Positions 1 through 15,483 are shown, numbered from the stretch's first letter. The stretch: 64,000 bases of DNA from Candidatus Omnitrophota bacterium (GCA_028716565.1 JAQUPL010000002.1:194989-258988), one strand, 5' to 3'. Notes: a model not told the origin generated them from the sequence alone. Numbers and translations: made by a program.

Positions 1-390
1 ATGGCGGGGGCGTTCGGCATATTCCTGATGAGGCAGTTCATAATGAACATCCCCGACGACCTCATAGACGCGGCGAAGATAGACGGCTGCACCGAGTTCA
101 CGATATACCGCAGGGTGATACTCCCCCTGATACAGCCGGCGCTCGCCTCGCTGGCGATATTCACTTTCATGGCGCAATGGAATAATTTCGTCTGGCCCCT
201 CGTCATAATATATTCCTCGAAAATGAGGACGATACCCCTCGCTCTCTCCGTACTGAACGGGCAGTTCGGGACGAATTTCGCGATGGTCATGGCCGGCGCA
301 GTGGTCGCTACGGCCCCGGTATTGATAGTCTTTATAGCCTTCCAGAAGTATTTCATAAAAGGCATAGCCCTTACCGGCCTTAAAGCGTGA
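1..390 (+). CDS. Carbohydrate ABC transporter permease, C-terminal fragment (gene starts upstream of window)
   Basis: Translation has the EAA-loop-like motif AAKIDGCTEFTIYRRVILPLIQPALA and the C-terminal TM helices typical of MalG/AraQ-type sugar permeases. The ORF is open at the 5-prime edge. Confidence 0.7.
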   Translation: MAGAFGIFLMRQFIMNIPDDLIDAAKIDGCTEFTIYRRVILPLIQPALASLAIFTFMAQWNNFVWPLVIIYSSKMRTIPLALSVLNGQFGTNFAMVMAGAVVATAPVLIVFIAFQKYFIKGIALTGLKA

Positions 391-393
391 CAT

Positions 394-2520
394 ATGAAAA
401 AAAGCTGTCTTGTCTTTCTAGCGTGCGCATTTTTCCTCGTTTCCGCCGAAACGTTCGCCTATAAGCCGGCCACGATAAATTCAATCGCCCCTTCTTCGGA
501 AAAAGTCGGGAGATACGGCCTCTTCGAGCTCACGGTGGACCTAAGCGCCGAATATGAAAATCCTTTTGACCCTTTGCAGGTAGGCCTCTCCGGAATATTC
601 AAGTCGCCGTCATCCAAAGAGATAAAAGTCCCCGGGTTCCTTTATTCATCGTCCGGGAAAAGGCCTGTTTGGAAGATACGCTTCTCCCCGGATGAAGAGG
701 GGGACTGGACCTATTGTGCGACAGTTGCGGACAAACACTCCTCAGCCAGGTCTCCTGTTGCCGGATTCACATGCTTCCCCTCGACGGCTACGGGACCGGT
801 CAGGGTAAGCAAGATCGATCCCTGTTATTTTGAGACCTCCGACGGCAAATTCTTCTTCCCTGTCGGCATGAACGTCGCGTGGCTCGGGGGGGATACGCTG
901 TATAATTACGACGGCTATTATAAGAAGATAAGCGGCAACGGCGGGAACTGGTCGCGGCTGTGGCTGTGTTCCTGGGGCCTCGGGCTCGAATGGAAGAAGG
1001 ATAAGTCATACGGCGGCCTCGGGAAATACAATCTCAGGAACGCGGACAGGATAGATAAGATACTGGGGATGGCCGAAAAATACGGCATACGCGTCCAGCT
1101 TACGATAAATATCCACGGCCAGTTTAGCACTTCATCCGATTCTGAGTGGGGCGCAAACCCCTATAACGCCAAGAACGGCGGGCCATGCAAGTCCCCGCCG
1201 GATTTTTTCACGAACGAGGACGCAGCAAGGCTCTTCAAGAACCAGCTCCGTTATATAATCGCCAGGTGGGGATACAGCCCGGCGATATTCTCGTGGGAGC
1301 TTTGGAACGAGATCGACCTGACCGACGGTTTCGACGAGGCCCGCGCCGGCGAATGGCACAAGGAGATGGCGGATTATATAAAGGGCGCGGACCCGCTCGG
1401 CCACATGATAACCACGAGTCTCTCAAAGCCGCTGGATTGCTTGCTCTGGCGCGCGCCATACATCAGCTATACGCAGATCCACCAGTACAGCGATGTTATG
1501 ATAGACGAGATAGTCTTCCGCGCGAAAGAGTTCCGGGAGAGGTACGGAAAGCCGGTCCTTATCGCTGAAGTAGCCAGCACCGCGAAGGAAGGGACGGTAG
1601 AACGCAGGCAGGATCCCCAGGGGATAAGGTTCCATAACGCGCTCTGGTCTTCGGCCGCCTCGCCTGCAGCCGGAACCGCGATGTATTGGTGGTGGGACAG
1701 CTATATCAAGCCGCGAAATCTTTTCTACGAGCTTAGGGCGGTCTCCGGGTTTACCGCCGGCGATGACAGGCGCGGTAAAAAGTTCACGGATATCGATTAC
1801 AGGATAATTTACCCCAAGGATACCTATAATACGCTCACTTTCACGCCTTATCTCGACTGGCAGGCCTCGACCGCCTCGGAATTCATCGTGGGGAACGATG
1901 GGCGCATCTCGGATATCGACAAACTTTCTAGGTTTTTCCAGGGCTCGGCGCACACGGATATGAAGGTCACCCCGGTATTCGCCGTAGATTATCCCGGGGA
2001 CGGCTCGTTTACCCTTAATATCGACATGGTATCCGAGGGCGGGGCCAAAGCTGCCATCTGGCTTGACGACCGGATGGTCCTCGAACATATCTATAAGCCG
2101 CTCCCGAGCTACAAACATCTCGATGACAGCTTCGAGGTCGGCGTGAGCAAGGGAAGACACCGCATAAAGATAACCAATGACGGGGCCGATTGGTTCAGGG
2201 TCAGGAACATCTGCCTGAGCGGCTATTCCAACCCGCTCCAGGTGGTAGGTATCAGGTCCGGCGATTCAGCGTATCTTTGGTTCAAGAACAGGGATGACAC
2301 GGTCGATAACCGCAGGAAAGGCGTCAGGTATACTTGGATAGAGATACCCAGGGTCGTCATAACCGGCTTGAAAGACGGGGATTACGCAGTCGAATATTTC
2401 GATACCATCGCCGGCGGCGTGATCCGGAGCGAGAAAACCGGGTGCCGGAACGGCAGCCTCGAACTGGCCATACCTACCTTTACCACCGATCTGGGTTGCA
2501 AGGTCAAACTCTCCAGATAA
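394..2520 (+). CDS. Secreted glycoside hydrolase, GH5-like TIM barrel with DUF5060-type N-terminal domain
   Basis: N-terminal signal peptide (MKKSCLVFLACAFFLVSAETFA). A beta-sandwich-like N-domain is followed by a TIM-barrel region containing WELWNEID (GH5-style NE acid/base motif) and IAEVAST (candidate nucleophile Glu). It sits in a carbohydrate locus next to an ABC permease and a LacI regulator. Confidence 0.55.
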   Translation: MKKSCLVFLACAFFLVSAETFAYKPATINSIAPSSEKVGRYGLFELTVDLSAEYENPFDPLQVGLSGIFKSPSSKEIKVPGFLYSSSGKRPVWKIRFSPDEEGDWTYCATVADKHSSARSPVAGFTCFPSTATGPVRVSKIDPCYFETSDGKFFFPVGMNVAWLGGDTLYNYDGYYKKISGNGGNWSRLWLCSWGLGLEWKKDKSYGGLGKYNLRNADRIDKILGMAEKYGIRVQLTINIHGQFSTSSDSEWGANPYNAKNGGPCKSPPDFFTNEDAARLFKNQLRYIIARWGYSPAIFSWELWNEIDLTDGFDEARAGEWHKEMADYIKGADPLGHMITTSLSKPLDCLLWRAPYISYTQIHQYSDVMIDEIVFRAKEFRERYGKPVLIAEVASTAKEGTVERRQDPQGIRFHNALWSSAASPAAGTAMYWWWDSYIKPRNLFYELRAVSGFTAGDDRRGKKFTDIDYRIIYPKDTYNTLTFTPYLDWQASTASEFIVGNDGRISDIDKLSRFFQGSAHTDMKVTPVFAVDYPGDGSFTLNIDMVSEGGAKAAIWLDDRMVLEHIYKPLPSYKHLDDSFEVGVSKGRHRIKITNDGADWFRVRNICLSGYSNPLQVVGIRSGDSAYLWFKNRDDTVDNRRKGVRYTWIEIPRVVITGLKDGDYAVEYFDTIAGGVIRSEKTGCRNGSLELAIPTFTTDLGCKVKLSR

Positions 2521-2588: not shown

Positions 2589-3614
2589 ATGAAACGTTTC
2601 GATAAATCCAGCATAACCATAAAAGACGTGGCAAAACGGGCGGGGGTCGCTCACTCAACCGTCTCTCTTGTTATGAACGACCGTGAACACGTGTCGCCGA
2701 AGCTGCGCGAACGTATCCTTAAGATCGCCAAAGAGATGGGCTATATGCCCAACCTGGTCGCGCGCAGCCTTATCAGCAAGAAATCGTCCACCGTAGGGGT
2801 GGTATTCCCCGAGAACCCGCATTTTTTCACCATAACGTACTTCCTTATGATAATAGAGGGCATACAGAACGCCTGTAAGAAATACGACAGGGCGCTTATG
2901 TTCTTCAGCCTCGACCAGACCAAGGGCGAGTCGTATTACCAGATATCCCGCAAATGGCTTATTGACCTCATGGTGATCCTGAACGTCGATTACACAAGGG
3001 ATATCTCAAAAGACATCCGCGACCTCAAAGACAACGGCATAGCCTTTTCTTTAGTGACAAAATATAACGGCAAAGAAAAGGTCAACTCGGTCTGCGTCGA
3101 TAATTTCGAGGGCGTGAGATTGGCCCTGGAATATCTGGCCTCGCAAGGCCACAAGCGCGTCGGGTTCATAAGCGGCAACCCGAACTCGGCAGACGGCCCA
3201 GAAAGGCTGCAGGCGTTCAAGACCCTATCCAAAAAGATGGGCTTTGACCAGGACGAGGAGCTTATCGTCTACGGCGATTTCACATTCGAGAGCGGCGAAA
3301 GGGAGGTCCCGAAGCTCCTGGGGCTCAAGAAACGCCCCACCGCGATATTCGCGGCTAGCGATTATATGGCCATCGGCGCGATGCGCGTCATGAAAGCGCA
3401 GGGCATCTCAATACCCAAAGACATGGCGCTGATGGGGTTCGATAATACGCTCGAGGTCGCCTACGTCGAACCCCCGCTGACGACGATAAGGCAGCCTCTC
3501 CAGGAGATGGGAGAGAAGGCGGTCGACCTCGCAGTCCGCTCCATGAACGACGAGAATTTTGAACCCCAGATGGCAGTGATAAAACCCGAACTCATTAAGA
3601 GGCAATCATGCTGA
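2589..3614 (+). CDS. LacI family transcriptional regulator
   Basis: N-terminal HTH (ITIKDVAKRAGVAHSTVSLVMN) followed by a periplasmic-binding-protein-like sugar-binding core. 341 aa, typical LacI/GalR length. Confidence 0.85.
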   Translation: MKRFDKSSITIKDVAKRAGVAHSTVSLVMNDREHVSPKLRERILKIAKEMGYMPNLVARSLISKKSSTVGVVFPENPHFFTITYFLMIIEGIQNACKKYDRALMFFSLDQTKGESYYQISRKWLIDLMVILNVDYTRDISKDIRDLKDNGIAFSLVTKYNGKEKVNSVCVDNFEGVRLALEYLASQGHKRVGFISGNPNSADGPERLQAFKTLSKKMGFDQDEELIVYGDFTFESGEREVPKLLGLKKRPTAIFAASDYMAIGAMRVMKAQGISIPKDMALMGFDNTLEVAYVEPPLTTIRQPLQEMGEKAVDLAVRSMNDENFEPQMAVIKPELIKRQSC

Positions 3615-6600
3615 AAAAAACCTTCCCATATTTTGCGATTATAGTCTTCCTGGCGTGCGCGCTCGCGCCGGCGCAGGTGTATCCCGCCCAGGCCGCGGGA
3701 CCCGGGGTCCAGCCTCCCACATTCGAGGTAAAAGAGATAGACGGCCTGTATCTCCCGTTCCAGAACGGGATACCTTTCCCGTCATGGGAGAGGCAGGACC
3801 GCCCTTACATAGAATTGGACGGCTCATGGAGGTCCGAACGGCAGGGCGTCGACCACAAGCTTACGCTTTATAAGAGGACGCCGGAGACCTTGAAACTCCT
3901 CGAAGAGGAGAGCACCGGCAGGTATAAAGCCGATTACGACGACAGCGCGTGGAAAGAGAAATCTGTCCCGGGCGTCGAAGACCCGGCCCCTGACAGGTAT
4001 ATGGACGGGGCATGGTACAGGAGGCATTTCACAGTCCCGGCCGACGCGTCCGGCAAGTACGTTAAACTCATGTTCGAGGCCGCGAATTATTTTACGGATG
4101 TGTGGATCAACGGCAAATGGATAGGCTGCCATGAAGGCGGCTATACGCCGTTCGCGTTCGATATAAGCCAATACCTTAACTTTGGGCAGGATAATGTCAT
4201 AGCCGTCCGCGTCGATAATATCCCGTGGCTCCCCAACGGAGACGCCTCGTCCGAGGCGCTCAGTACCAACGACCATAACATAGTCCCTTACGTTACCGGC
4301 GACTGGTGGAATTACGGCGGGATAACAAGGAGCGTATATATAGAGATATCGCCGCCGGTCTCGGTCGTCCGCGCCGACATAAAACCGAAACTGGTCAACG
4401 AGAAAGATTCCGAACTGACGATAGATGTGACCGTTTATAACCGGAGCGATGCCGAATTTGATTCATCCCTTGCCCTCAAGATCGTCCAGGCCAACGTGAA
4501 GGACGATAACCTAGAGGAAGCGTCTGTAAAGAAAATAGCTACGGGCAGGACCGTCTCCATGGAAGGAGAGACCTCCAAACAGGTAACGTTGAAGGCGGGC
4601 GAGGCGAAGGCGTTCAGGTTCTCGCTGAAATCGGGCGCGCTCAAACCCTGGTCGCCGGAGTCGCCTAACCTTTACGTGTTACGGGTAGCTCTCGCCGACA
4701 GGAAGGCAAGATCAGGCGAGCTCTACACCCAGTTCGGCGTCAGGGAGGCAAGCGTAGATAAGGCCAACGCGAAACTGCTCCTGAACGGCAAAGAGATATT
4801 CCTCCGCGGTATCGCGCGCCACGAAGTCTTCTACGGCGAACCCGGCCCGCTGGTTTACGGCCCGGCCGCGGTTACGGCGGATTTCAAGTACATAAAAGAC
4901 GCCAATGCGAATTTTGTAAGGACGGCCCATTATCCCAACCAGCAGCAGACCTACACTATCGCCGACAGGATGGGGCTTCTCGTATGGGAGGAGATACCCA
5001 TGTTCTGGTTCACCGGGCCGGAGTTCCTCGTCCAGAAAAATGTCCGGGGCATCGGAAGGCAAATGTGGTTCGAGATGATATACCGCGATTATAACAGGCC
5101 GTCGGTCATAATCTGGGGCGCGTGCAACGAATGCAGCTGGCAGGGGGAGAGGGCCGTTTTTATCAAAGACCTGAGGGAGAACGCTTATAAGGTCGACGGG
5201 ACCCGGCTTGTCGCGCAGTCGGCCTCGGGAAGCGATCCTACCGATGCCACCCAGAAGGAATGCGACATCATAGGGTTTACGACTTATTACGGTATATTCT
5301 ACGGCAGCTCGTATTTTGCCGATACGAAGGAAGCTCTCAAGAAGACCCACCAGGCCTTTCCGGACAAGCCGGTCATATCCACGGAATACGGCGTCTGGGC
5401 CCGTTACGGGGACCTTGCCCAGGAAGCGTCGCAGGTCGAAGTGGCGAAAGATACTTTCAAGGCTTTCAGGGACTTCCCGTTCGTCGCCGGCGCGACATGG
5501 TGGACGATCGCGGATTGGCACACGATGATCAACGAGCCGGAGGTTATGGGCACGATGACGATCGACAGGAAATTCCAGAAGCCGGTATATTTCCAGCTGC
5601 AGCGGCAATATGCCTCGCTTTTAGGAGACCTGGCGGTCGAACTTAAAGAACCGAAGGAAGAAGCGGTCTTGCAGGGAAAGGCCGGTATATCGGCCGAGAT
5701 AAAAGGGGAAGAAAAGCCCGAGGCAGTGGAACTGATAGTAGAAGGGAAACTCCTGGGCCGGCTATACCAGAAGAAAGACCTTTACCGGATGGAATTGGAC
5801 ACGTCAAAACTGCCGGAAGGCAAACATATGCTTATCGTCCGGGCGACCGGTGAAGTCCTTAGCGAAGCTAAGGGCAAGAAGGGTTATTATGTCTCCGATT
5901 TCGTCCGGGTCATCGTAGATAATATAGACGAACTTCCTGCGGTCACGGTAAATCTCAAAGATAACGACGCAGTTATAGGCAAAGTCTCGCTGAAGGCCGT
6001 CGCGGCCGACGACAGGGGCATCGCTTCGGTCACTTATTCCGTCGACGGGGAAGAGCCCAAGCAGATGGAAGGCATAGGCGAGGGAAATTACCAGGCGGTA
6101 TGGGACGCCTCGCAGCTTCCCGACGGCTCTACCCATGATATTAAATTCATAGTGACGGACACGGGCAGCCAGACCTCCGAGGCAACGGCCAAAGTAACTA
6201 TCGATAATAAGCCGGGCAAGTATGCGGAATTGCCGCTTGACCACGACTGGATCTCATGGAATACAAACCGCAACGACGGGACCGGCTATGACTTCCCGGC
6301 GGAGGAACTGCCCGACTCGAATTCCGAGTTCATATTCAACGGCGCGGAAAAGGTAAAGTTCAAATTCGGCGACAAGGCCGACGGCCAAAAGAACACCGTC
6401 GAATGCGGCAAGCAAAAGATAGCTTTCCCGCCCGGGTATTATACGAAAGTGCATATCCTCGCCGCCATGCATGACGGCGGCTCGAAACAGACGTTCGTCC
6501 TGAGCTATACCGATGGGACCTCGGCGAAGGTCGTGACCGGTTTTTCGGACTGGTGGGGAGGCAATCCCATCTACGGCGAAGAAGTAGCCGTAGTGACGAC

Positions 6601-8185
6601 ATACCATCATGAATCGGCCGGCGACAGGAAGCCCGGCGTGGCGCTTTATATGCAGACGCTCGAGCCGGACAAGAGCAAGATCCTCTCTTCGCTCACCCTG
6701 CCCGCGGACAAGAGATTGAATATATTTGCGATCACCCTTGAGGGGGAGGTCTCGAACATTCCCTTGCCCGAGCCCGCTATAATTGAGCCCGGGCCCAACT
6801 CATCGGTGGGCGGTGCCGTAAAGATTGCAGCGGAGGACAAGCAGGAAAATATAGCGAAGATCGATTATTCCGTGGACGGGGGAGAGTGGATGCCGATGTC
6901 GCCTTCGGCCGCAGGGACTTATACCGCCGAATGGGACACGTCAAAAGTGCCGGGAATAAATCATATGATAAGCGTAAAGGCGACTGATAAGATCGGGCAG
7001 ATAAATATAAAAAGCATAGACGTGAGGGTTGTAAATAAGGTCACCATAGTATTCCCGTTCGACGGCGCCAGCATATATAAAATGGCTACTCTTATGGTCG
7101 AGCCGAGGGCCAACACGGAAGTCGACAAGCTGGAGTATTCCATCGATAACGGCCGGTTTATCGAGATGTCGCCGAATATGGGGCTCTACACGGCCGAGTG
7201 GAGGATAGACGAGGGGTATAAGCCCGGCTCAATCCATACGCTGATGGTCAGGGAGAATGAGAAATCCGGCGCGGTCACGATAGACACGGTCAAGATAACG
7301 GCCGATACCGTAAAGATAATGATAGCGGAACCGGTCAAGGGCCATACTATAAAGGTCGACAAGAACATAAGGGACTGGGTAGGTACTACGCCGGCCCAGG
7401 AGAATACGGCGACTATCAGCGGAGGCGAATATATCTGGGAAGACGCCAAGGGCGACGGTACCGGAAACGGGCATTACACTTATCCGACTAATAAAGCGCT
7501 GACTAAAGGCGCTGACCTTAGGGAATTCAGGGTCACGTGGGACAAAGAGAACTTGTACCTGATGATAAAATGCGACCGGCCCGGGGATTTCTGGACGCCT
7601 TACAGGATAATAGGCATAGACCAGGACGGCGCCAAGGGCGGCAAGGGCGGCACGCAGGTCCTTGCCCAGGGCGATGGGGACCAGGATACCGGGTGCTACG
7701 GGAACCTTAAGGTCTCGCCGGACCTGGCGTGCGAATACGTGATAGGGATATTCAATTCCTACAAGGGGAGGATCTGGGACGCGAAGGGGAAAACTATAGC
7801 CCGCAAGGAAGGAGATAGTAACGATACTCCGGGATTCATGGTCGACGACGCCAACTGGAACTCGGTCGAAGTCGCTATCCCTTTGAAACTCATCGGCGGA
7901 AGCCCTGCGGGCCATACGTGGAGGTTCGTTGTGGGGACCGGCCAGCAGGACAGCGGAATTTTCAGGAAAGTGGATAAGGATGTATCCGAGTGGCACGGGG
8001 GCGGGGGCGAGGTGAACGGCTCGAACCCGTATATTTACGATATGGCCAGCCCGGACAGGAAAACGCAGGAATATGAGTTGAACAGCTACAAGAAGGACGG
8101 GGACTCTTCGGACCCGTTGACGTTCGCGGTAATAAACAGATCTTATCTGGCGGTCACTTTCAGCGACGAGGCAAAGTCCCCGTAA
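3608..8185 (+). CDS. Secreted multidomain GH2 glycoside hydrolase (beta-galactosidase/beta-mannosidase-like) with four Ig-like repeats and a C-terminal ~285-aa domain that is duplicated downstream
   Basis: Signal peptide present. GH2 sugar-binding and TIM-barrel motifs are recognisable (GGYTPFAFDISQYL, NANFVRTAHYPNQQ, WGACNECS acid/base, ISTEYG nucleophile). Four repeats of a W-D-T/A-S-K/Q-x-P-x-G-x-H-x-I motif typical of bacterial Ig-like domains lie between about 5700 and 7320. The C-terminal region 7331..8185 is paralogous to the three downstream ORFs. Confidence 0.8.
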   Translation: MLKKTFPYFAIIVFLACALAPAQVYPAQAAGPGVQPPTFEVKEIDGLYLPFQNGIPFPSWERQDRPYIELDGSWRSERQGVDHKLTLYKRTPETLKLLEEESTGRYKADYDDSAWKEKSVPGVEDPAPDRYMDGAWYRRHFTVPADASGKYVKLMFEAANYFTDVWINGKWIGCHEGGYTPFAFDISQYLNFGQDNVIAVRVDNIPWLPNGDASSEALSTNDHNIVPYVTGDWWNYGGITRSVYIEISPPVSVVRADIKPKLVNEKDSELTIDVTVYNRSDAEFDSSLALKIVQANVKDDNLEEASVKKIATGRTVSMEGETSKQVTLKAGEAKAFRFSLKSGALKPWSPESPNLYVLRVALADRKARSGELYTQFGVREASVDKANAKLLLNGKEIFLRGIARHEVFYGEPGPLVYGPAAVTADFKYIKDANANFVRTAHYPNQQQTYTIADRMGLLVWEEIPMFWFTGPEFLVQKNVRGIGRQMWFEMIYRDYNRPSVIIWGACNECSWQGERAVFIKDLRENAYKVDGTRLVAQSASGSDPTDATQKECDIIGFTTYYGIFYGSSYFADTKEALKKTHQAFPDKPVISTEYGVWARYGDLAQEASQVEVAKDTFKAFRDFPFVAGATWWTIADWHTMINEPEVMGTMTIDRKFQKPVYFQLQRQYASLLGDLAVELKEPKEEAVLQGKAGISAEIKGEEKPEAVELIVEGKLLGRLYQKKDLYRMELDTSKLPEGKHMLIVRATGEVLSEAKGKKGYYVSDFVRVIVDNIDELPAVTVNLKDNDAVIGKVSLKAVAADDRGIASVTYSVDGEEPKQMEGIGEGNYQAVWDASQLPDGSTHDIKFIVTDTGSQTSEATAKVTIDNKPGKYAELPLDHDWISWNTNRNDGTGYDFPAEELPDSNSEFIFNGAEKVKFKFGDKADGQKNTVECGKQKIAFPPGYYTKVHILAAMHDGGSKQTFVLSYTDGTSAKVVTGFSDWWGGNPIYGEEVAVVTTYHHESAGDRKPGVALYMQTLEPDKSKILSSLTLPADKRLNIFAITLEGEVSNIPLPEPAIIEPGPNSSVGGAVKIAAEDKQENIAKIDYSVDGGEWMPMSPSAAGTYTAEWDTSKVPGINHMISVKATDKIGQINIKSIDVRVVNKVTIVFPFDGASIYKMATLMVEPRANTEVDKLEYSIDNGRFIEMSPNMGLYTAEWRIDEGYKPGSIHTLMVRENEKSGAVTIDTVKITADTVKIMIAEPVKGHTIKVDKNIRDWVGTTPAQENTATISGGEYIWEDAKGDGTGNGHYTYPTNKALTKGADLREFRVTWDKENLYLMIKCDRPGDFWTPYRIIGIDQDGAKGGKGGTQVLAQGDGDQDTGCYGNLKVSPDLACEYVIGIFNSYKGRIWDAKGKTIARKEGDSNDTPGFMVDDANWNSVEVAIPLKLIGGSPAGHTWRFVVGTGQQDSGIFRKVDKDVSEWHGGGGEVNGSNPYIYDMASPDRKTQEYELNSYKKDGDSSDPLTFAVINRSYLAVTFSDEAKSP

Positions 8186-8234
8186 GGGGAGAGCGAAATA
8201 GTAATTAAACCGGTATAAAAAGGAGGGCGGTAAA

Positions 8235-9140
8235 ATGGGTAAAGTGGCGGTGTTGTTAGCGGTCGGATTGGTCTTTTCGTCTGTCTGTTTCGCCGAGGAT
8301 GCGGTCACAGGGCATACTATCGCGGTCGATAAGAATATAAAGGACTGGACCGGCGTTGCTCCGGAGCAGGAGAACTCGGCAGCGGTGAGCAACGGAGAGT
8401 ATATCTGGAAGGATGCCGCCGGCGACGATACGGGAAACGGGAAATACACTTATCCTTTGGATAAAGCGCTCAAGAAGGGCGCGGACCTGAAGGAGTTCAG
8501 GGTCACGTTCGACAAGGAGAACCTTTATATCCTGATCAAGACCGACAGGCCCGGAGACTGGTGGACCGGTTTCAAGGTGATAGGGATACACAAGGAAGGC
8601 GTAGCGGGCGGCACACAGGTCCTGGCCCAGGGTGATCCGGACGAATTAAATTTTGATTCGGGCACTTTCGCTAACCTGAAGGTCGCGCCGGAGTTAGCCT
8701 GCCAGTATGTGGTGGCGGTCTCATCGACTTACAAAGGCCGTATCTATGACGAGAAAGGCAAGATGATAGCGCGCAAAGAGGCGCAACCGGACGATACAGC
8801 CGGGTTCAAGGTTGACGATTTCAACTGGAATGCGGTAGAGATAGCAGTCCCGTTAAGCCTCATCGGCGGGAGCCCTGCGGGCCAGACATGGAAGTTCGTT
8901 GTGGCGGCCGGACAGCAGGATAACGATATTGCCCGTAAGGTATTGGTCGAACAGAGCCAGTATAACGGCGGCGGCGGAGCCGAAAACGGAGAAAACCCGA
9001 GCGCATATGACCTCGCAGGCGCCGATAAGGCTACACAGGAGAAAGATCTCGGCAGTTACGACTCTAATGCAGCGGAGGAGGACCCGAAAGGTTTCGCTAC
9101 GATAGAAAAATCGTTCCTGACCGTTAATTTTGCGAAGTAA
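8235..9140 (+). CDS. Secreted protein consisting only of the conserved ~285-aa domain shared with the GH2 C-terminus (paralog 1)
   Basis: RBS AAGGAGG 8 nt upstream; signal peptide. Alignable end to end with 7331..8185, 9174..10190 and 10126..11091. Shared motifs are GHTI-VDKNI-DW, GEYIWKDA-GDDTGNG-YTYP, EFRVT-DKENLY-LIK-DRPGD-W, LAQGD, NLKVAPELACQYV, YKGRI-D-KGK-IARKE, IPL-LIGGSPAGQ-W and GGGG-NG-NP-YDLAG. Confidence 0.7.
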   Translation: MGKVAVLLAVGLVFSSVCFAEDAVTGHTIAVDKNIKDWTGVAPEQENSAAVSNGEYIWKDAAGDDTGNGKYTYPLDKALKKGADLKEFRVTFDKENLYILIKTDRPGDWWTGFKVIGIHKEGVAGGTQVLAQGDPDELNFDSGTFANLKVAPELACQYVVAVSSTYKGRIYDEKGKMIARKEAQPDDTAGFKVDDFNWNAVEIAVPLSLIGGSPAGQTWKFVVAAGQQDNDIARKVLVEQSQYNGGGGAENGENPSAYDLAGADKATQEKDLGSYDSNAAEEDPKGFATIEKSFLTVNFAK

Positions 9141-9173
9141 GCCCGTTCGTATTAAATTAGGAAAGGCCGGCAT

Positions 9174-10190
9174 ATGAAAAGGAAAGCAAACGTTCTTTTT
9201 TATATGTTCGTGGCTTTGGGAGTCATCTTTACCACTCAGCGGATGGCCGGAGCTTTTTCCGGCCATCCGGTCCTTGTCGGCGGCGCGACCAACGACTGGA
9301 TCGGGACGACGCCGTCCGAACCCAACAGCTGGACGATAAGCGGAGGGGAATATATATGGAAGGACGGCGTGGGCGATGATACCGGTAACGGCAGTTATAC
9401 CTATCCTCTCCAGAAGGCCCTGAAAGGGGGATGCGACCTAAGGGAGTTCAGGCTTAGCTACGACGACAAGAACCTCTACTTGCTGATAAAATGCGACCGG
9501 CCCGGGGATTTCTGGCCCCCTTTAAGGATAATAGGGATACATAAAGAAGGAACCGCGGGCGGCATGACCCTCCTGGCGCAGGGTGATGCGAATGAACCGG
9601 ATTTTGATAAAGGAGTTTCCGCCAACCTGAAGGTCGCGCCGGAGCTGGCCTGCCAATATGTGATCGCTATATCATCCTCCGCATATAAGGGCCGGATATG
9701 GGATGCCGAAGGAAAACTTGTTGCCCGGAAAGAGGGCGAAAAGGACGATACTCCCGATTTTAAGGTGGAAGGAGTGAATTGGAATCATGTCGAAGCCGCG
9801 ATACCTCTGGAGCTGATAGGCGGCAGTCCGGCGGGACAGGTATGGAAGATCGTCATCGCCATAGGCCAGCAGGATTTTGATGTCGCGCGCAAGATAGACG
9901 TGGACGCGAGCGAATGGAACGGCGGAGGCGGCGCGCCGAACAACTCCAATCCGTATGTCTATGACCTGGCCGGCGCCGATAAAGAGACGCAGGAGAAAGA
10001 ATTGGGAAGCTATAACCCGAATGCGCCGTTCGGGGATCCCGACGGATTCGCCGTTATAACAAAATCATTCCTGAAAATTGATTTCAGGAATGAAGGTCCG
10101 GGTAAATTGTCAAGGAGGGGTGAAAATGGCACGGAAACCGGTTTTTTATCTGGTGTTTGCGTCTTTTTTCCTGCTCTGCTCTCCCGCTGA
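9174..10190 (+). CDS. Secreted conserved-domain protein (paralog 2), with a ~35-aa C-terminal extension
   Basis: Signal peptide present and the same motif set as paralog 1. The C-terminal tail overlaps the next gene by 65 nt in another frame. Confidence 0.7.
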   Translation: MKRKANVLFYMFVALGVIFTTQRMAGAFSGHPVLVGGATNDWIGTTPSEPNSWTISGGEYIWKDGVGDDTGNGSYTYPLQKALKGGCDLREFRLSYDDKNLYLLIKCDRPGDFWPPLRIIGIHKEGTAGGMTLLAQGDANEPDFDKGVSANLKVAPELACQYVIAISSSAYKGRIWDAEGKLVARKEGEKDDTPDFKVEGVNWNHVEAAIPLELIGGSPAGQVWKIVIAIGQQDFDVARKIDVDASEWNGGGGAPNNSNPYVYDLAGADKETQEKELGSYNPNAPFGDPDGFAVITKSFLKIDFRNEGPGKLSRRGENGTETGFLSGVCVFFPALLSR

Positions 10191-11091
10191 GGCGACAGAC
10201 AGGTACGGGCCTTTTTCCGGCCATTCGATAAAAGTGGACGGTTCGCTTGCCGACTGGGTAGGCATCGCCCCGTCCAGTCCTAATACCGGCGCGATAAGCG
10301 GCGGAGAGTTCATATGGAGGGACGCCTCCGGAGACGATACCGGGAACGGTAATTATACATATCCAATGAACGCCGCTTTCGCGAGGGCCGCTGACTTAGA
10401 AGAGTTCAGGGTCACGTGGGACAACAAAAACGTTTATTTTTTGATCAAGACGGCCATGCCGGGCGAATGGTGGGCTCCTTACCGCGTCATAGCCATAGAT
10501 ACGGATGGCGCTGGCGGAGGAGGGAAAGGAATGCGGGTTATACAGCAGGGCTATATTAATGCCGAGGCCGCGGATTCCGGCACGTTTGGGGAATTAAAGG
10601 TTTCCGATGCGCTTGCGGCGAATTACGTAATAGCCATAGCCGGCACATACAAGGGGCGCATCTGGGACGAGAAGGGTAACCTTGTCGCAAAGGCCGCCGG
10701 TGAAAGCACGGATACCCGCGGTTTCAAGATAAAGGATTCCAACGCTTGCGCTATTGAGATCCAGGTGCCGCAAAAGATAATCGGGAATCCTGCCGGGAAG
10801 ATATGGAGATTTATCGTGGCCTGCGGCCTCGAAGACAAAGAGCATGCCAGGGAGGTCTATAAGGTTGCTGAGGAATGGCATGGCGGCGGAGGGGAATCCA
10901 CGACAGCCGAAGACGGTGTAGACCCGGATTTTTATGACCTGGCCGGCCTCGGCCGGAACACGCAGGAGACGGAGCTTTCGAGTTACGGTTCCAACAAGCC
11001 GGCAGGGGACACCTCGGGTTTCGCGGAGATAAAAAGGTCTTATTTACAGGTAAAGTTCGCGCCGTATCCGAACGCGAAGAGCCTGAAATAA
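10126..11091 (+). CDS. Secreted conserved-domain protein (paralog 3)
   Basis: Start chosen at the ATG at 10126 (MARKPVFYLVF...), preceded by the RBS AGGAGGGG; the track ORF begins further upstream at 10078. Signal peptide present; same domain as the other paralogs but more divergent. Confidence 0.7.
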   Translation: MARKPVFYLVFASFFLLCSPAEATDRYGPFSGHSIKVDGSLADWVGIAPSSPNTGAISGGEFIWRDASGDDTGNGNYTYPMNAAFARAADLEEFRVTWDNKNVYFLIKTAMPGEWWAPYRVIAIDTDGAGGGGKGMRVIQQGYINAEAADSGTFGELKVSDALAANYVIAIAGTYKGRIWDEKGNLVAKAAGESTDTRGFKIKDSNACAIEIQVPQKIIGNPAGKIWRFIVACGLEDKEHAREVYKVAEEWHGGGGESTTAEDGVDPDFYDLAGLGRNTQETELSSYGSNKPAGDTSGFAEIKRSYLQVKFAPYPNAKSLK

Positions 11092-11103
11092 CCGCCGGTT
11101 TTT

Positions 11104-11130
11104 CCCCCCTTGAGGGGGAGAATTTTTTAC
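11104..11130 (+). terminator. Rho-independent terminator after the paralog array
   Basis: CCCCC-TTGA-GGGGG hairpin (11105..11118) followed by AGAATTTTTT. Confidence 0.5.
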
Positions 11131-11157: not shown

Positions 11158-12183
11158 ATGAAGAAAGTCACCTTTAAGGAGATCTCCAGGATAGTCGGCG
11201 TGTCCCCGATGCACGTGTCGAGGGCCCTCGCAGGGCACCCTTACGTAAAGGAGGAACTGCGCCGCGAGATATCCAAAGTAGCCAAGAAGCTCAACTACAG
11301 CATCAATCCCTTCGGCCGCGGCCTGTCCAAGAATATCCAGATGAAAGCCCGGATGATATGCGTCCTGACCAAATACGGGAACTTCTTCCGGACCGAGTAT
11401 TTCGTCAACCTGATAGACGCAATCAGCAGCAATTGCAGGGCGAAGGGATACGACGTGATAATAGCGAGCCTCACGGACGATGAAAGCGGCAACATAAAGA
11501 GGCTCAAGAACCTGGTCAGTTATTATAAGGCGGGCATAATAGAGGGGTTCGTCTTCATCGCGCCGGACCTCGACGCCGCGGAAGGTTTTTTCCTGCGCGC
11601 GGAAAAGGTCAATTTTGTCTGCGCCGGCAGCAGGATAGATGCAGCTACGAAATATGTCGACGTCGATAATTTCAGGGCGGGCTCCGAGGTCGGCGGCTAT
11701 CTTATCCGCCTGGGCCACAGGAGGATAGCTTTTGTGAAAGGCCTCGAGAAGAGGCGCGATAGCCGGGAGAGGCAGCAGGGTTTCTTGAATGCCCTGACGG
11801 CAAGCAGGATCGCGCCGGACGAGAGCCTATTCATTGCCGGCGATTACAGTATTCCCGGCGGGAAGAAGGCGACGGCGGAATTGTTTTCGCGCAAGAAGAA
11901 GCCGGACGCGATATTTTATGCTAACGACCTTATGGCCTACGGCGGCCTCGAATTTTTCAAGGAAAAAAAGATAAGGGTACCGCGCGAGATCTCTATCGTG
12001 GGTTTTGACGACCTCGCTGCGTCGTCCCGGACCGAGCCCCCGCTTACGACCGCGAGGCAACCTTATAAAGAGATGGGAGAGGCGGTCATGGAGGCTGTAT
12101 CCCGCCCGGAATTCGCTTCAAGGATGATAACAGCGAAATTAATAATAAGGAAGAGCTGCGACAACCCAAGGAGAAGAGGATGA
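11158..12183 (+). CDS. LacI family transcriptional regulator (second copy)
   Basis: HTH (VTFKEISRIVGVSPMHVSRAL) plus a PBP-like sugar-binding domain; 341 aa. Confidence 0.85.
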   Translation: MKKVTFKEISRIVGVSPMHVSRALAGHPYVKEELRREISKVAKKLNYSINPFGRGLSKNIQMKARMICVLTKYGNFFRTEYFVNLIDAISSNCRAKGYDVIIASLTDDESGNIKRLKNLVSYYKAGIIEGFVFIAPDLDAAEGFFLRAEKVNFVCAGSRIDAATKYVDVDNFRAGSEVGGYLIRLGHRRIAFVKGLEKRRDSRERQQGFLNALTASRIAPDESLFIAGDYSIPGGKKATAELFSRKKKPDAIFYANDLMAYGGLEFFKEKKIRVPREISIVGFDDLAASSRTEPPLTTARQPYKEMGEAVMEAVSRPEFASRMITAKLIIRKSCDNPRRRG

Positions 12184-15100
12184 GGACTACCGCGGAATAC
12201 AGGATCGGTAACGACAACGAATTCATAATTGAAAATTACAACTATTCCAAGGCCTTTTCGAGTTTCCTGCCCGGCATAGCCGGCGTCGACGGCATCCCGA
12301 TGTGGGTCTTTTACGTGAACAGGAACCAGGCGGTATGCAGCCTCGGCATAGAGAGCAAGGACCGCGCGATGATGGAGTTCCTGCCCGCGAATTTCGCCTA
12401 CCAGCTGGTCGGGACGCAGGGCTTCAGGACCTTTATCAAGATAACGGGCAAAAACGGTTTTACGCTGTATGAGCCGTTCAGGGTATACGAGAAAGAAGAG
12501 GGGTATATCCCGTCCCAGGTGATGACTATTACCCCTTATTCCGTGACGCTAAGGGAGGTCCACGAAAAGCTGGGCATGAGCGTCGAGGTCAGGTATTGCA
12601 ACGTCGTCCAGGAGCCGTTCCCCGGCCTTATAAGGCAGGTGGAGATAAAGAATATCTCCAAGAGGGCCGTGAAGATCGAGCTCCTCGACGGGATGCCGCA
12701 GGTGATACCCTTCGGGATGGACGATTCCAGCCTGAAGAAGATGAAATACCTCGTCAAATCCTTCAGTTACGCGGAAAACCTCGAAAAAAAGATACCTTAT
12801 TTCCACATCAGGACGACCCATGAGGACGGCCCTGAGGTGGCCATGGTAAAGAGAGGCCATTATTACGCGTGCGTCAGGGTGGATGGAGGCAATGCTGAGT
12901 TGAAACGGCCCCTTATAGATGCCTCGCAGATCTTCGGGATGAGGAAGGACCTGATCCTCCCCTCGTGCTTTAACGTGAGGTCGAAATTCATTTATGATAC
13001 TAAGGGCGAACTGACCAGCGGGGAGTTCTCTTCGGCCATGTGCCATGATGATGCGGCCCTCAAGCCTTCGGAGGCGCTCACTTTATACTGCGTCTGCGGC
13101 ACCTTGGATTCCGTCGGCGGCACGAAAGAGGTGGCGCGCGCCCTCACCGCGGATTTCGCGGAGACGCAGCTCAAGAAGAACCGGGCCGTCATTGAATCGA
13201 TAATGGGCTCTTCCCTGGTCATAAGCGAAGACGAGAAGTTTGACAGGTATTCCGCCCAAAATTTTCTCGACAACGTGCTGCGCGGAGGCTTTCCCCTGAC
13301 GGTAACGAAAGACAGAAGCAAAGTCTTCTATGTCTATTCCAGGAAGCACGGCGACCTGGAGAGGGATTATAACCAATTCTACACTTCCCCGACCCTCTAT
13401 TCCCAGGGCGATTCCAATTACAGGGACGTCAACCAGAACAGGCGAAACGACACGTTCTTCAATCCCGACGTCGGGATGTCCAACATTATCAACTTCATAA
13501 ACTTCATACAGATGGACGGGTTCAATCCGCAAGGCGTGGACGGAGTGACATTCATATATAAGGGAGACAAAAAACTTCTCATAAGCCTTTTCGGAGCCGG
13601 CGCCGAAAAGATGGAGGAGTTTTTCAGGAAGCCTTTCGCCCCGGGCGACATCTTCAAGTTCGCCGGATCCAATTCTATCAAGGCCGCCGTATCGAACGGG
13701 GAGATGCTCTCGAAGATACTCGAGCGCTCGGACGCCGGGCAGAATTCGCGGCATATCGACGGTTTCTGGAGCGACCACTGGTCCTATAATATGGACCTCA
13801 TCGACAGTTTCCTGGCCGTCTATCCGGACAGGAGGAAAGAATTATTCTCAGGGCGCAGGGATTTCACGTTCCACGACAGCCCTTACGTCGTCCTGCCGAG
13901 GCAGGATAAATACGTCTTGTGGGACGGAAAACCGGTCCAGCTGGGCGCGGTAAAGGTCGACGAGGAGAAGAGGAAGATGATCGCCGGCAGGAGATCGGAG
14001 AAGACGCTCGTCCGCAAAGTTAACGGCAAAGGAGACGTCTACAGGACCGACCTCATCACGAAACTCCTGATAATCGCGGTCAATAAGATAAATTCCATCG
14101 GGCCGGACGGCTGCGGAATCGAGATGGAGACGGATAAGCCGAACTGGTGCGATGCGCTTAACGGACTTCCGGGGCTCTTCGGGTCGTCCTCGAACGAGAC
14201 CTTTGAACTGAAGAGGCTGATAACCATGATCTCGAAGAACCTTGGCGGTAAGGCCCTCGAGCTTCCCGAGGAAGCCGTCGAGGCGATCAGGGATTCGAAA
14301 GACGCGCTAAACGGTTATATCGGCGGGAAACTGGACGATTTCGGCGTATGGGACAAACTGGCCGCGATAAAAGAAGATTTCAGGAGAAAGACGAGATGCG
14401 GGATAATCGGCAGGCTCATCCCGGTCCCGGCAGACGAAATATCCGGCTACCTTGCGCTCGCGGCAAAGAGGGTCCAGGCGGCCATAAACAAAAGTTTTGA
14501 CGAGAAGACCGGCCTTTATTTTGGGTATTTTATAAATATCCCGGCTGAATACGAACAGATCGCGGTCACCGACAGCACCGGCAGGGAGGTCCCGAAGGCC
14601 AACCATAAGGGCCTGCCGTGCATCAGGGTGATGAAATTCAACTCCAGGCCGCTGCCGTTATTCCTGGAGGCGCAGGTCCACGCGCTGAAGGTGGAAGAGG
14701 ACAGATCTGTCGCCGCGAGGCTGCACTATAACCTCATGAAGAGCGGTCTGGTCGACAAAAAATTGAAGATGTTCTCGGTCAATGCCTCGCTTGAAAAGGA
14801 GCCGTATGAGATAGGCAGGACCAAGACGTTCAATCCGGGCTGGCTCGAGAACCAGTCGATCTGGCTTCACATGGAATATAAATACTTACTCGAGTTATTG
14901 AAGGCCGGGCTTTACAAAGATTATTACGCGAATCTCAAGGACGTCCTCGTGCCGTTCCTGAGGCCCGAGGTCTACGGAAGGAGCATCTTCGAGAACTCGT
15001 CTTTCATCGCGGGCAGCGTCCATCCGGACAAGAAAGTCCACGGCCAGGGGTTTTACGCGAGGCTCTCCGGCTCGACCGCCGAATTCGTCCATATGTGGCT

Positions 15101-15470
15101 TATGATGATGACCGGAGGAAGGCCTTTCGCGCTTGACGCAAACGGCAAGCTGGTCTTCAGCTTATCCCCGGTCCTTAAGGGCGGCATGTTCCTGAAAAAA
15201 GACCGCAAAGCGGAGTATTATTCTCCCGAAGGAAAACTGCAGAAAGAGACCGTCAAGAAAGGCACATTGAAATTCATGCTGCTTGGCAGCATAGCCGTGA
15301 CTTATATCAATCCCCGGAGGAAGGATATTTTCGGGGGCGGCAAAGGGGCTAAGTACGCGCTGACGCTCGAGGACGGCGCGGTGAAGGAATTCATCGGCAG
15401 CGTCCCGGAACCGTATTCGGCCCTTGTGAGGGAAAGAAAAATAAAAGAGATAAAGATGTATCTTGATTAA
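12180..15470 (+). CDS. Large (1096 aa) putative glycoside hydrolase/phosphorylase of the (alpha/alpha)6-barrel type, GH94-like
   Basis: Cytoplasmic, with no signal peptide. The motif KPNWCDALNGL resembles the GH94 catalytic ADWNDCLN segment. The gene is embedded between a LacI regulator and a GH35 enzyme. The family assignment is tentative. Confidence 0.4.
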   Translation: MRTTAEYRIGNDNEFIIENYNYSKAFSSFLPGIAGVDGIPMWVFYVNRNQAVCSLGIESKDRAMMEFLPANFAYQLVGTQGFRTFIKITGKNGFTLYEPFRVYEKEEGYIPSQVMTITPYSVTLREVHEKLGMSVEVRYCNVVQEPFPGLIRQVEIKNISKRAVKIELLDGMPQVIPFGMDDSSLKKMKYLVKSFSYAENLEKKIPYFHIRTTHEDGPEVAMVKRGHYYACVRVDGGNAELKRPLIDASQIFGMRKDLILPSCFNVRSKFIYDTKGELTSGEFSSAMCHDDAALKPSEALTLYCVCGTLDSVGGTKEVARALTADFAETQLKKNRAVIESIMGSSLVISEDEKFDRYSAQNFLDNVLRGGFPLTVTKDRSKVFYVYSRKHGDLERDYNQFYTSPTLYSQGDSNYRDVNQNRRNDTFFNPDVGMSNIINFINFIQMDGFNPQGVDGVTFIYKGDKKLLISLFGAGAEKMEEFFRKPFAPGDIFKFAGSNSIKAAVSNGEMLSKILERSDAGQNSRHIDGFWSDHWSYNMDLIDSFLAVYPDRRKELFSGRRDFTFHDSPYVVLPRQDKYVLWDGKPVQLGAVKVDEEKRKMIAGRRSEKTLVRKVNGKGDVYRTDLITKLLIIAVNKINSIGPDGCGIEMETDKPNWCDALNGLPGLFGSSSNETFELKRLITMISKNLGGKALELPEEAVEAIRDSKDALNGYIGGKLDDFGVWDKLAAIKEDFRRKTRCGIIGRLIPVPADEISGYLALAAKRVQAAINKSFDEKTGLYFGYFINIPAEYEQIAVTDSTGREVPKANHKGLPCIRVMKFNSRPLPLFLEAQVHALKVEEDRSVAARLHYNLMKSGLVDKKLKMFSVNASLEKEPYEIGRTKTFNPGWLENQSIWLHMEYKYLLELLKAGLYKDYYANLKDVLVPFLRPEVYGRSIFENSSFIAGSVHPDKKVHGQGFYARLSGSTAEFVHMWLMMMTGGRPFALDANGKLVFSLSPVLKGGMFLKKDRKAEYYSPEGKLQKETVKKGTLKFMLLGSIAVTYINPRRKDIFGGGKGAKYALTLEDGAVKEFIGSVPEPYSALVRERKIKEIKMYLD

Positions 15471-15483
15471 ACAGGAGGTTTCG

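Follow-up and report, generated by a model that had tools for sequence, protein, structure and literature searches.

Why should a single bacterial locus encode the same protein module four times, once at the C terminus of an exported glycoside hydrolase and three times as separate secreted proteins? This question is raised by a stretch of 64,000 nucleotides from a Candidatus Omnitrophota bacterium (GCA_028716565.1 JAQUPL010000002.1:194989-258988), hereafter called the window, which comes from a group that is referred to in PMC10066038 as a phylum without cultured representatives. The gene in question encodes a glycoside hydrolase of family 2 (GH2), the C-terminal part of which recurs in three tandem genes directly downstream, named here copies A, B, and C. 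As detailed below, all four copies belong to the Pfam family Glucodextran_C (PF09985), and in related genomes the module accompanies the same GH2 lineage. We consider it probable, with no more than modest confidence, that the four copies are non-catalytic glycan-binding accessory modules of ~280 amino acids (aa) with a DOMON fold, serving the exported GH2 enzyme within a LacI-controlled locus that also encodes GH35, GH161-type, and ATP-binding cassette (ABC) transporter proteins.

Are the four segments truly copies of one module, and are the free ones likely to be made and exported? An earlier note on this DNA, prepared from the sequence alone, had reported that the last part of the GH2 enzyme and the three downstream open reading frames (ORFs) align from end to end through a series of shared motif blocks, and that each free copy has its own ribosome-binding site (RBS) and signal peptide. 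This description holds. The ORFs lie where the note had placed them, and the last ~290 aa of GH2 align over their entire length with copies A, B, and C, with 45-62% identity overall, 48-57% between the free copies and the GH2 tail, and 96 columns invariant across all four. The most divergent pairs by BLASTP are B and C (E 5e-89) and the GH2 tail and C (E 7e-98). All the motif blocks that had been quoted are present in the alignment, with copy C departing from several of them, e.g. IQQGY where the others have LAQGD. Scanning of the 64-kb window with a hidden Markov model (HMM) of the family recovered exactly these four copies and no others.

Upstream of each free copy is a sequence of the Shine-Dalgarno type, namely AGGAGG for A, 9 nt from the start, GGAAAGG for B, and AGGAGG for C. 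The ORF list begins copy C with a TTG at 10078, but a start at the ATG at 10126, just downstream of the AGGAGG, is more likely. As judged by eye, the N termini of all three proteins resemble Sec signal peptides, with basic residues, a hydrophobic core, and an A-x-A-like site, and putative cleavage would occur between CFA and ED in copy A, MAG and AF in copy B, and AEA and TD in copy C. Visual inspection revealed no lipobox conserved across orthologues. Indeed, the signal region lacks Cys altogether in copy B and in many orthologues, and any Cys that does occur there is not in the context of a canonical lipobox. Similarly, Pfam searches and inspection identified no transmembrane segment, S-layer homology (SLH) domain, or sorting tail in the module copies of the window. 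A lipoprotein or SLH anchor is ruled out by these results, which also leave unproven the cell-surface placement proposed in the earlier note. After Sec export, the final location of the proteins could be the periplasm, the cell surface, or the medium.

To which family does the module belong? All four copies match PF09985 from profile positions 5 to ~220 of 228, with E-values of 1.8e-20 (GH2 tail), 3.5e-22 (A), 2.2e-22 (B), and 1.1e-22 (C), and scores of 73.9, 79.5, 80.2, and 81.1 bits, respectively, the gathering score of the family being 22 bits. No other Pfam family was found for the free copies at E ≤ 0.01, hence neither carbohydrate-binding module (CBM) family CBM9 nor SLH, and no NCBIfam model matches them. 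NCBI already holds the exact proteins (MDD5546336-9, from a Candidatus Omnitrophota MAG, i.e. metagenome-assembled genome) under the names "glycoside hydrolase family 2..." and "glucodextranase DOMON-like domain-containing protein." Nearly all of the top homologues come from Omnitrophota metagenome bins and are ~300-340 aa long. The family is of modest size: among 1.84 billion representative proteins clustered at 50% identity, 598 clusters reach E ≤ 1e-3, and 40 reach E ≤ 1e-30. The Glucodextran_C domain, also named D-domain, is part of the DOMON-like superfamily and has a CBM9-like fold (PMC10074034). It is known in the literature from GH15, GH65, GH49, and GH57 enzymes, and from a GH53 galactanase.

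The fold is consistent with this assignment. Copy A was modeled with AlphaFold2 from an alignment of 48 sequences, and the resulting confident model (pLDDT 93.1, pTM 0.89) is a beta-sandwich consisting almost entirely of beta structure. When compared with the PDB using Foldseek, its top match is the Arthrobacter glucodextranase 1ug9 (E 7e-8, probability 1.00, 281 aligned columns, root mean square deviation 4.3), followed by the starch-binding CBM74 of Ruminococcus bromii Sas6 (E 1e-4), the core of which is itself CBM9-like (bioRxiv 10.1101/2022.11.20.514607), and by CBM9 (E 3e-3 to 5e-3). The remaining matches rank lower (E ≥ 9e-3), mostly with low probability. The tentative likeness to glucodextranase-C and CBM9-like beta-sandwich modules drawn in the earlier note is therefore borne out by both Pfam and the model. 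Sequence searches of the PDB were unconvincing. A single sequence returned only a chance match to a polyhydroxybutyrate (PHB) depolymerase (E 0.033), a 48-sequence profile returned only a marginal match to glucodextranase (E 0.2) in which the shared DDxGxGxYxYP motif was aligned, and neither search gave a significant match to CBM9 or CBM74 chains. The link to solved structures thus rests on Pfam and the fold search. Over 80 copies of the module, 52 of the 290 core positions are at least 95% conserved. Acidic (Asp/Glu), aromatic (Trp/Tyr/Phe), and Gly residues abound at these positions, among which is the DDxGxGxYxYP motif shared with Arthrobacter glucodextranase. At 11 positions, the fused group and A are conserved alike and C has a different conserved residue. 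Sequence and fold, together with the context described below, place the four copies in Glucodextran_C; that the module also belongs to a CBM family of CAZy is not established.

Is the association between module and enzyme peculiar to the window? The enzyme that carries the fused copy consists, in this order, of a signal peptide, a GH2 catalytic core (N-terminal, immunoglobulin (Ig)-like, and TIM-barrel parts), Big_7 Ig-like domains, a ~190-aa domain, two further Ig-like domains, and the module. The closest solved enzymes to the core are GUS-type beta-glucuronidase/beta-galacturonidase/beta-galactosidases, e.g. 6d89 and 7vqm. For comparison, one genome per species was scanned, and all the fetched loci (numbered with the prefix L) were searched for the module with the family HMM and for GH2, GH35, and the phosphorylase by sequence. 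The locus recurs in other MAGs, near-identical in L002 and L003, with ~95% identity in L001, and progressively more distant in the others. Wherever the contig allows (~30 species-level genomes), free copies of this subfamily lie directly downstream of a GH2 gene. Most of these genomes are labelled Omnitrophota, including Ca. Kappaea, and one is labelled Auribacterota; a second clade carries the labels Elusimicrobia, "bacterium," or Clostridia, and has an ABC transporter binding-protein gene between two free copies. The copy-number check that the earlier note had called for gives one, two, or three free copies per locus.

GH2 itself comes in two forms, either long (~1490-1530 aa) with a fused module, or short (~1040-1070 aa) without one, and the short form stops at the domain lying just ahead of the final two Ig-like spacers of the long form. 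Five genomes (L016, L027, L034, L035, and L036) have a short GH2 and, directly after it, a lone free copy that carries a signal peptide of its own. The module therefore accompanies this GH2 lineage in cis or in trans, and such a pairing is strong evidence of a shared function, which fits the carbohydrate-related accessory role that the earlier note had suggested. The neighborhood is conserved as well, with genes for a LacI regulator, an ABC transporter, GH35, and a GH161-like phosphorylase. Our literature searches found no paper describing these free proteins or their link to GH2. The identity of the domain is already in public annotation, and what is new here is the strictly GH2-linked tandem arrangement in cis and in trans, together with its evolutionary history.

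Two side observations were made during this comparison. First, the ~190-aa segment of GH2 (residues ~855-1050; window ~6170-6760; …DHDWISWNTNRNDG…NIFAITLEG) has no Pfam assignment, and the short GH2s of other genomes terminate exactly with it (…HIFAVTLE-stop). The domain is conserved in this GH2 lineage and could be a binding module in its own right. Second, distant relatives of the module are found in L038 (1049-4987) and L041 (1129-4689), with forms that include the N terminus of a Bathyarchaeota GH57 enzyme. In L041, from a DHVE2 archaeon, a large module-bearing protein is followed by a small module-only protein, and this layout suggests that a fused copy with an adjacent free copy may have arisen more than once.

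How old are the copies, and are they maintained? Neighbor-joining trees, computed for 21 and then for 80 module copies, resolve a fused group, an A group that has duplicated again in one subclade, a C group, and a B group, and these orthologous groups span genomes whose orthologues are only ~50-70% identical. The C group is sister to the single free copies of genomes with a short GH2, and C is therefore probably the ancestral free form. The B group is long-branched and confined to the immediate clade of the window. In a related Omnitrophota MAG (L012, 3556-3849), B survives only as a 97-aa ORF that joins the signal peptide in frame to the final ~45 module residues. The flanking A-type and C-type copies are intact, and a copy has clearly been lost here. 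Ratios of nonsynonymous to synonymous substitution rates (dN/dS), estimated against the L001 orthologues (~95% aa identity), are 0.09 for the fused copy, 0.089 for A, 0.16 for B, and 0.12 for C, and those of the GH2 core, LacI, and the phosphorylase are 0.13-0.16.

At the DNA level, the four copies recur with a period of 951-973 nt and share 62-75% identity, with no long exact repeats among them. Together with the age of the orthologous groups, this argues against both gene conversion and a recent origin by duplication. At the level of whole genes (dN/dS 0.09-0.16), there is no support for positive or diversifying selection, nor for the "diversifying duplication" put forward in the earlier note. 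Instead, the copies are old, kept by purifying selection, and occasionally gained and lost.

In the window, intergenic gaps are short, and the one terminator-like hairpin, after C, is the probable end of the operon (Table 1). The LacI gene upstream, which also precedes GH2 in L001-L005 and L008, is probably the first gene of the transcription unit. Considering the overlap between LacI and GH2, the Shine-Dalgarno sequence of each free copy, and the hairpin after C, LacI-GH2-A-B-C is probably one operon.

Table 1. Features of the sugar-use locus, in window coordinates.
Feature	Coordinates	Strand	Basis and remarks
ABC-transporter permease gene end and exported 708-aa DUF5060 / clan GH-A-like protein	1..2520	+	Pfam BPD_transp_1; DUF5060
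LacI-family regulator	2589..3614	+	Pfam LacI and Peripla_BP_1/3; overlaps GH2 start by 7 nt
Exported 1525-aa GH2 enzyme	3608..8185	+	Pfam Glyco_hydro_2_N/2/2_C, Big_7, Glucodextran_C; signal-peptide-like N terminus by eye
Fused Glucodextran_C / DOMON-like module	7307..8167	+	GH2 residues ~1234-1520; family HMM envelope, E 6e-143; PF09985 at residues 1278-1497
Free copy A, 301 aa	8235..9140	+	Signal peptide and single DOMON-like module
Free copy B, 338 aa	9174..10190	+	Signal peptide, module, and ~35-aa tail
Free copy C, 321 aa from ATG	10126..11091	+	Signal peptide and module; most divergent copy
Intrinsic-terminator-like hairpin (CCCCCCTTGAGGGGG) and T-run	11100..11130	+	Directly after copy C; consensus scan
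Second LacI regulator, 1096-aa GH161-type phosphorylase, and GH35 beta-galactosidase	11158..18258	+	Pfam; PDB; N termini

The junction between copies B and C has features of its own. Copy B continues beyond its module with a tail (…GPGKLSRRGENGTETGFLSGVCVFFPALLSR) that reads, in another frame, across the Shine-Dalgarno sequence of copy C and into the codons of the latter's signal peptide, and the two genes overlap by 65 nt (10126-10190). The feature is also present in L001, L011, and L012. This tail, including its hydrophobic stretch, is conserved in related genomes, probably merely because it is constrained by the start region of C. In the more distant L004 and L008, the copy upstream of C is not of the B type and does not overlap with C. 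In addition, a 12-bp inverted repeat, TCATTCCTGAAA-ATTGA-TTTCAGGAATGA, is found at 10065-10093, at the end of the module-coding region of B and just upstream of the RBS of C. It is partly conserved in L001 and L011, and could form an RNA hairpin between the two cistrons.

The sugar-use locus occupies the first 18 kb of the window, and the remainder is housekeeping. The second LacI gene (11158-12183) and the one that precedes GH2 flank the GH2/module operon, and each overlaps the start of the next gene (phosphorylase and GH2, respectively) by a few bases, which suggests two adjacent, separately regulated transcription units. The 1096-aa ORF (12180-15470) has no Pfam match, and NCBIfam gives only weak GH149 similarity, but PDB searches identify the GH161 phosphorylase 9qqk (E 2.9e-191) as well as 9h8v (~1e-191), and the ORF is, by these matches, clearly predicted to encode a GH161-type glycoside phosphorylase. 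Its gene is kept beside the locus in most related genomes. Neither the phosphorylase nor GH35 has a signal peptide, as judged by eye from their N termini. On the other side of the operon, the exported 708-aa protein (394-2520), with DUF5060 at its N terminus, is related to solved DUF5060 proteins (PDB 9gmj/9gpc, E 4e-79) and distantly to GH5 beta-mannanases. Its gene is present in the close relatives of the window and absent from L004 and L008. Genes for a substrate-binding protein and two permeases lie upstream in L001 and L004. Beside the GH2 operon in some loci (L005, 2401-2946; L004, 1-380), there is a gene with a prepilin-type N-terminal methylation domain, or one with faint similarity to T2SS-K and Laminin_G_3, which hints at a link to pseudopilins or to the type II secretion machinery; no such neighbor was noted for the operon of the window.

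What, then, might the four copies do? The explanation that we favor is glycan binding in the service of GH2. Homology, fold, operon structure, export signals (by eye), strict linkage to GH2, and purifying selection have been shown above; that the modules bind sugar, which glycan this is, and where the proteins end up is inferred. One module is tethered to GH2 via the Ig-like spacers, and three would be made from the same operon as separate Sec-exported proteins. The modules would bind the polymeric glycan substrate, or different epitopes thereof. The fused copy would hold GH2 on the polymer, lowering its apparent Km, and the free copies may act as soluble or loosely associated glycan binders that capture the substrate or keep it near both the enzyme and the binding protein of the ABC transporter. 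Released oligosaccharides would enter the cell through the ABC system, and in the cytoplasm the GH35 beta-galactosidase and the GH161-type phosphorylase would complete their breakdown.

In favor of this explanation are the family and fold of the module, its linkage to GH2, the conserved neighborhood, the operon layout, the purifying selection and residue conservation, and the deletion experiment on MdDDE described below. Several points weigh against it. No Glucodextran_C domain has been shown to bind sugar directly, and the family is not listed by CAZy as a CBM (PMC10074034). The fold similarity to true CBMs is modest, with TM-scores normalized to the query of 0.24-0.43. The nearest solved relatives of GH2 are of mixed specificity (glucuronidases, galacturonidases, and galactosidases), which does not define its substrate. 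Finally, one distant relative of the module is found on a non-carbohydrate enzyme, a metallophosphoesterase with a type IX secretion system (T9SS) tail (L040, 2-2626), and another is a free protein with a T9SS C-terminal sorting domain (L039, 9974-11056), so that the module may perhaps be a general extracellular one.

The alternative that survives best is a role in anchoring or assembly, which we regard as possible although doubtful. According to it, the module binds a component of the cell envelope or its own copies, and the free copies are partner or scaffold subunits that hold GH2 at the surface or build a complex. Alternation of a fused copy with a separate adjacent gene is indeed a classic sign of physically interacting partners, the relatives on T9SS-tailed cell-surface proteins and on the phosphoesterase agree with it, and actinobacterial and archaeal enzymes carry the domain beside a C-terminal membrane anchor (PMC10074034). 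The title of PF09985 in Pfam also reads "SLH-like binding module," but "SLH-like" is found in that title only, and no SLH or other anchoring family was matched using Pfam. Moreover, with one to three free copies and an optional fused copy there is no fixed stoichiometry, and copy B has decayed in L012 in a locus that is otherwise kept. The sole functional datum for the family points to an effect on polymer affinity instead: deletion of the D-domain in the GH65 enzyme MdDDE increased the Km for polymeric glucans ~3-fold and halved kcat, and oligosaccharide kinetics were unaffected (PMC10074034).

It is very unlikely that the tandem copies are redundant and decaying, whether as recent duplicates of equivalent function or as pseudogenes, with no individual role. 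Copy number does differ between genomes, and B, which is limited to the clade of the window and long-branched, has been reduced to a remnant in L012. However, all the copies in the window are intact ORFs with start signals, their dN/dS values are in the range of the GH2 core and neighboring genes, conservation of each of the A, C, and fused groups extends over genomes with distant orthologues, and the limited DNA identity between copies shows no conversion tracts. For A, C, and the fused copy, decay is largely refuted.

The DOMON-like superfamily also has haem-binding members. That the copies are redox or haem b-binding proteins, as in cellobiose or ethylbenzene dehydrogenase, with the free copies serving as small periplasmic cytochromes, is the least likely explanation of all and, despite the classification of PF09985 in this superfamily (PMC10074034), is disfavored for want of conserved ligands, since 0 of the 52 positions at least 95% conserved is a His, Met, or Cys and the His of an N-terminal "GH" is missing from one clade of free copies; in addition, the operon has no redox-partner, cytochrome-maturation, or oxidoreductase genes, and the best structural matches are glycosidase modules and CBMs.

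Returning to glycan binding, a bolder form of this explanation, which we think unlikely, is that the GH2-linked Omnitrophota subfamily would be the first true carbohydrate-binding Glucodextran_C and a new CBM family for a beta-linked or uronate-containing glycan. Each of the fused and free paralogues would have its own epitope, or else they would join GH2 in a small extracellular hetero-oligomer for glycan capture. If true, this would represent a solution distinct from both Sus-type lipoproteins and cohesin-dockerin cellulosomes, in an ultra-small uncultured bacterium.

These findings do not overturn current understanding, and the locus is a tidy example of a known arrangement rather than a new system. 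They nevertheless extend the enzymes decorated by Glucodextran_C, i.e. GH15, GH49, GH53, GH57, and GH65, to GH2, and add a concrete polysaccharide-use locus to Omnitrophota. The free copies, secreted single-domain proteins of ~30 kDa, are convenient for testing sugar binding and the CBM status of the family. Furthermore, with the module strictly paired, in cis or in trans, to a single GH2 lineage, a search for the ligand can start from a definite partner enzyme and from a delimited locus (GH2, GH35, GH161-type phosphorylase, and ABC transporter).

How does this locus compare with known systems? SusE and SusF, from the polysaccharide utilization loci of Bacteroidota, are outer-membrane lipoproteins that work with TonB-dependent transporters. 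Like the free copies, they are secreted, non-catalytic, and CBM-like, their genes adjoin those for the enzyme and transporter within a single regulated sugar locus, and their copy number varies between genomes. Unlike them, the free copies have no conserved lipobox, are found with an ABC transporter, and belong to a different fold family. The module shares its beta-sandwich fold group with CBM9 (Thermotoga Xyn10A, 1i82) and CBM74 (Sas6, 7uwv). CBM74 is, like the module, an unusually large (~300 aa) elaboration of a CBM9 core, and Sas6 is likewise a non-catalytic binding protein that works alongside enzymes. On the other hand, the module has no membership in either family at the sequence level and TM-scores are in the low range given above, ligands have been demonstrated for CBM9 and CBM74 whereas binding here is predicted from context, and the lipoprotein or dockerin attachment of SusE/SusF or Sas6 is lacking. 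The closest counterpart is glucodextranase (1ug9), which belongs to the same Pfam family, is the best structural match, shares the DDxGxGxYxYP motif, and similarly has its module at the C-terminal end of an exported glycoside hydrolase. It differs in that sequence similarity is marginal even with a profile, and in that its enzyme acts on an alpha-glucan whereas the partner here is a beta-acting GH2. Moreover, the module described here is longer (~280 aa, compared with a Pfam model of 228 positions), with a conserved C-terminal extension consisting of a helix plus strands, and it exists not only fused to its enzyme but also as free secreted tandem proteins.

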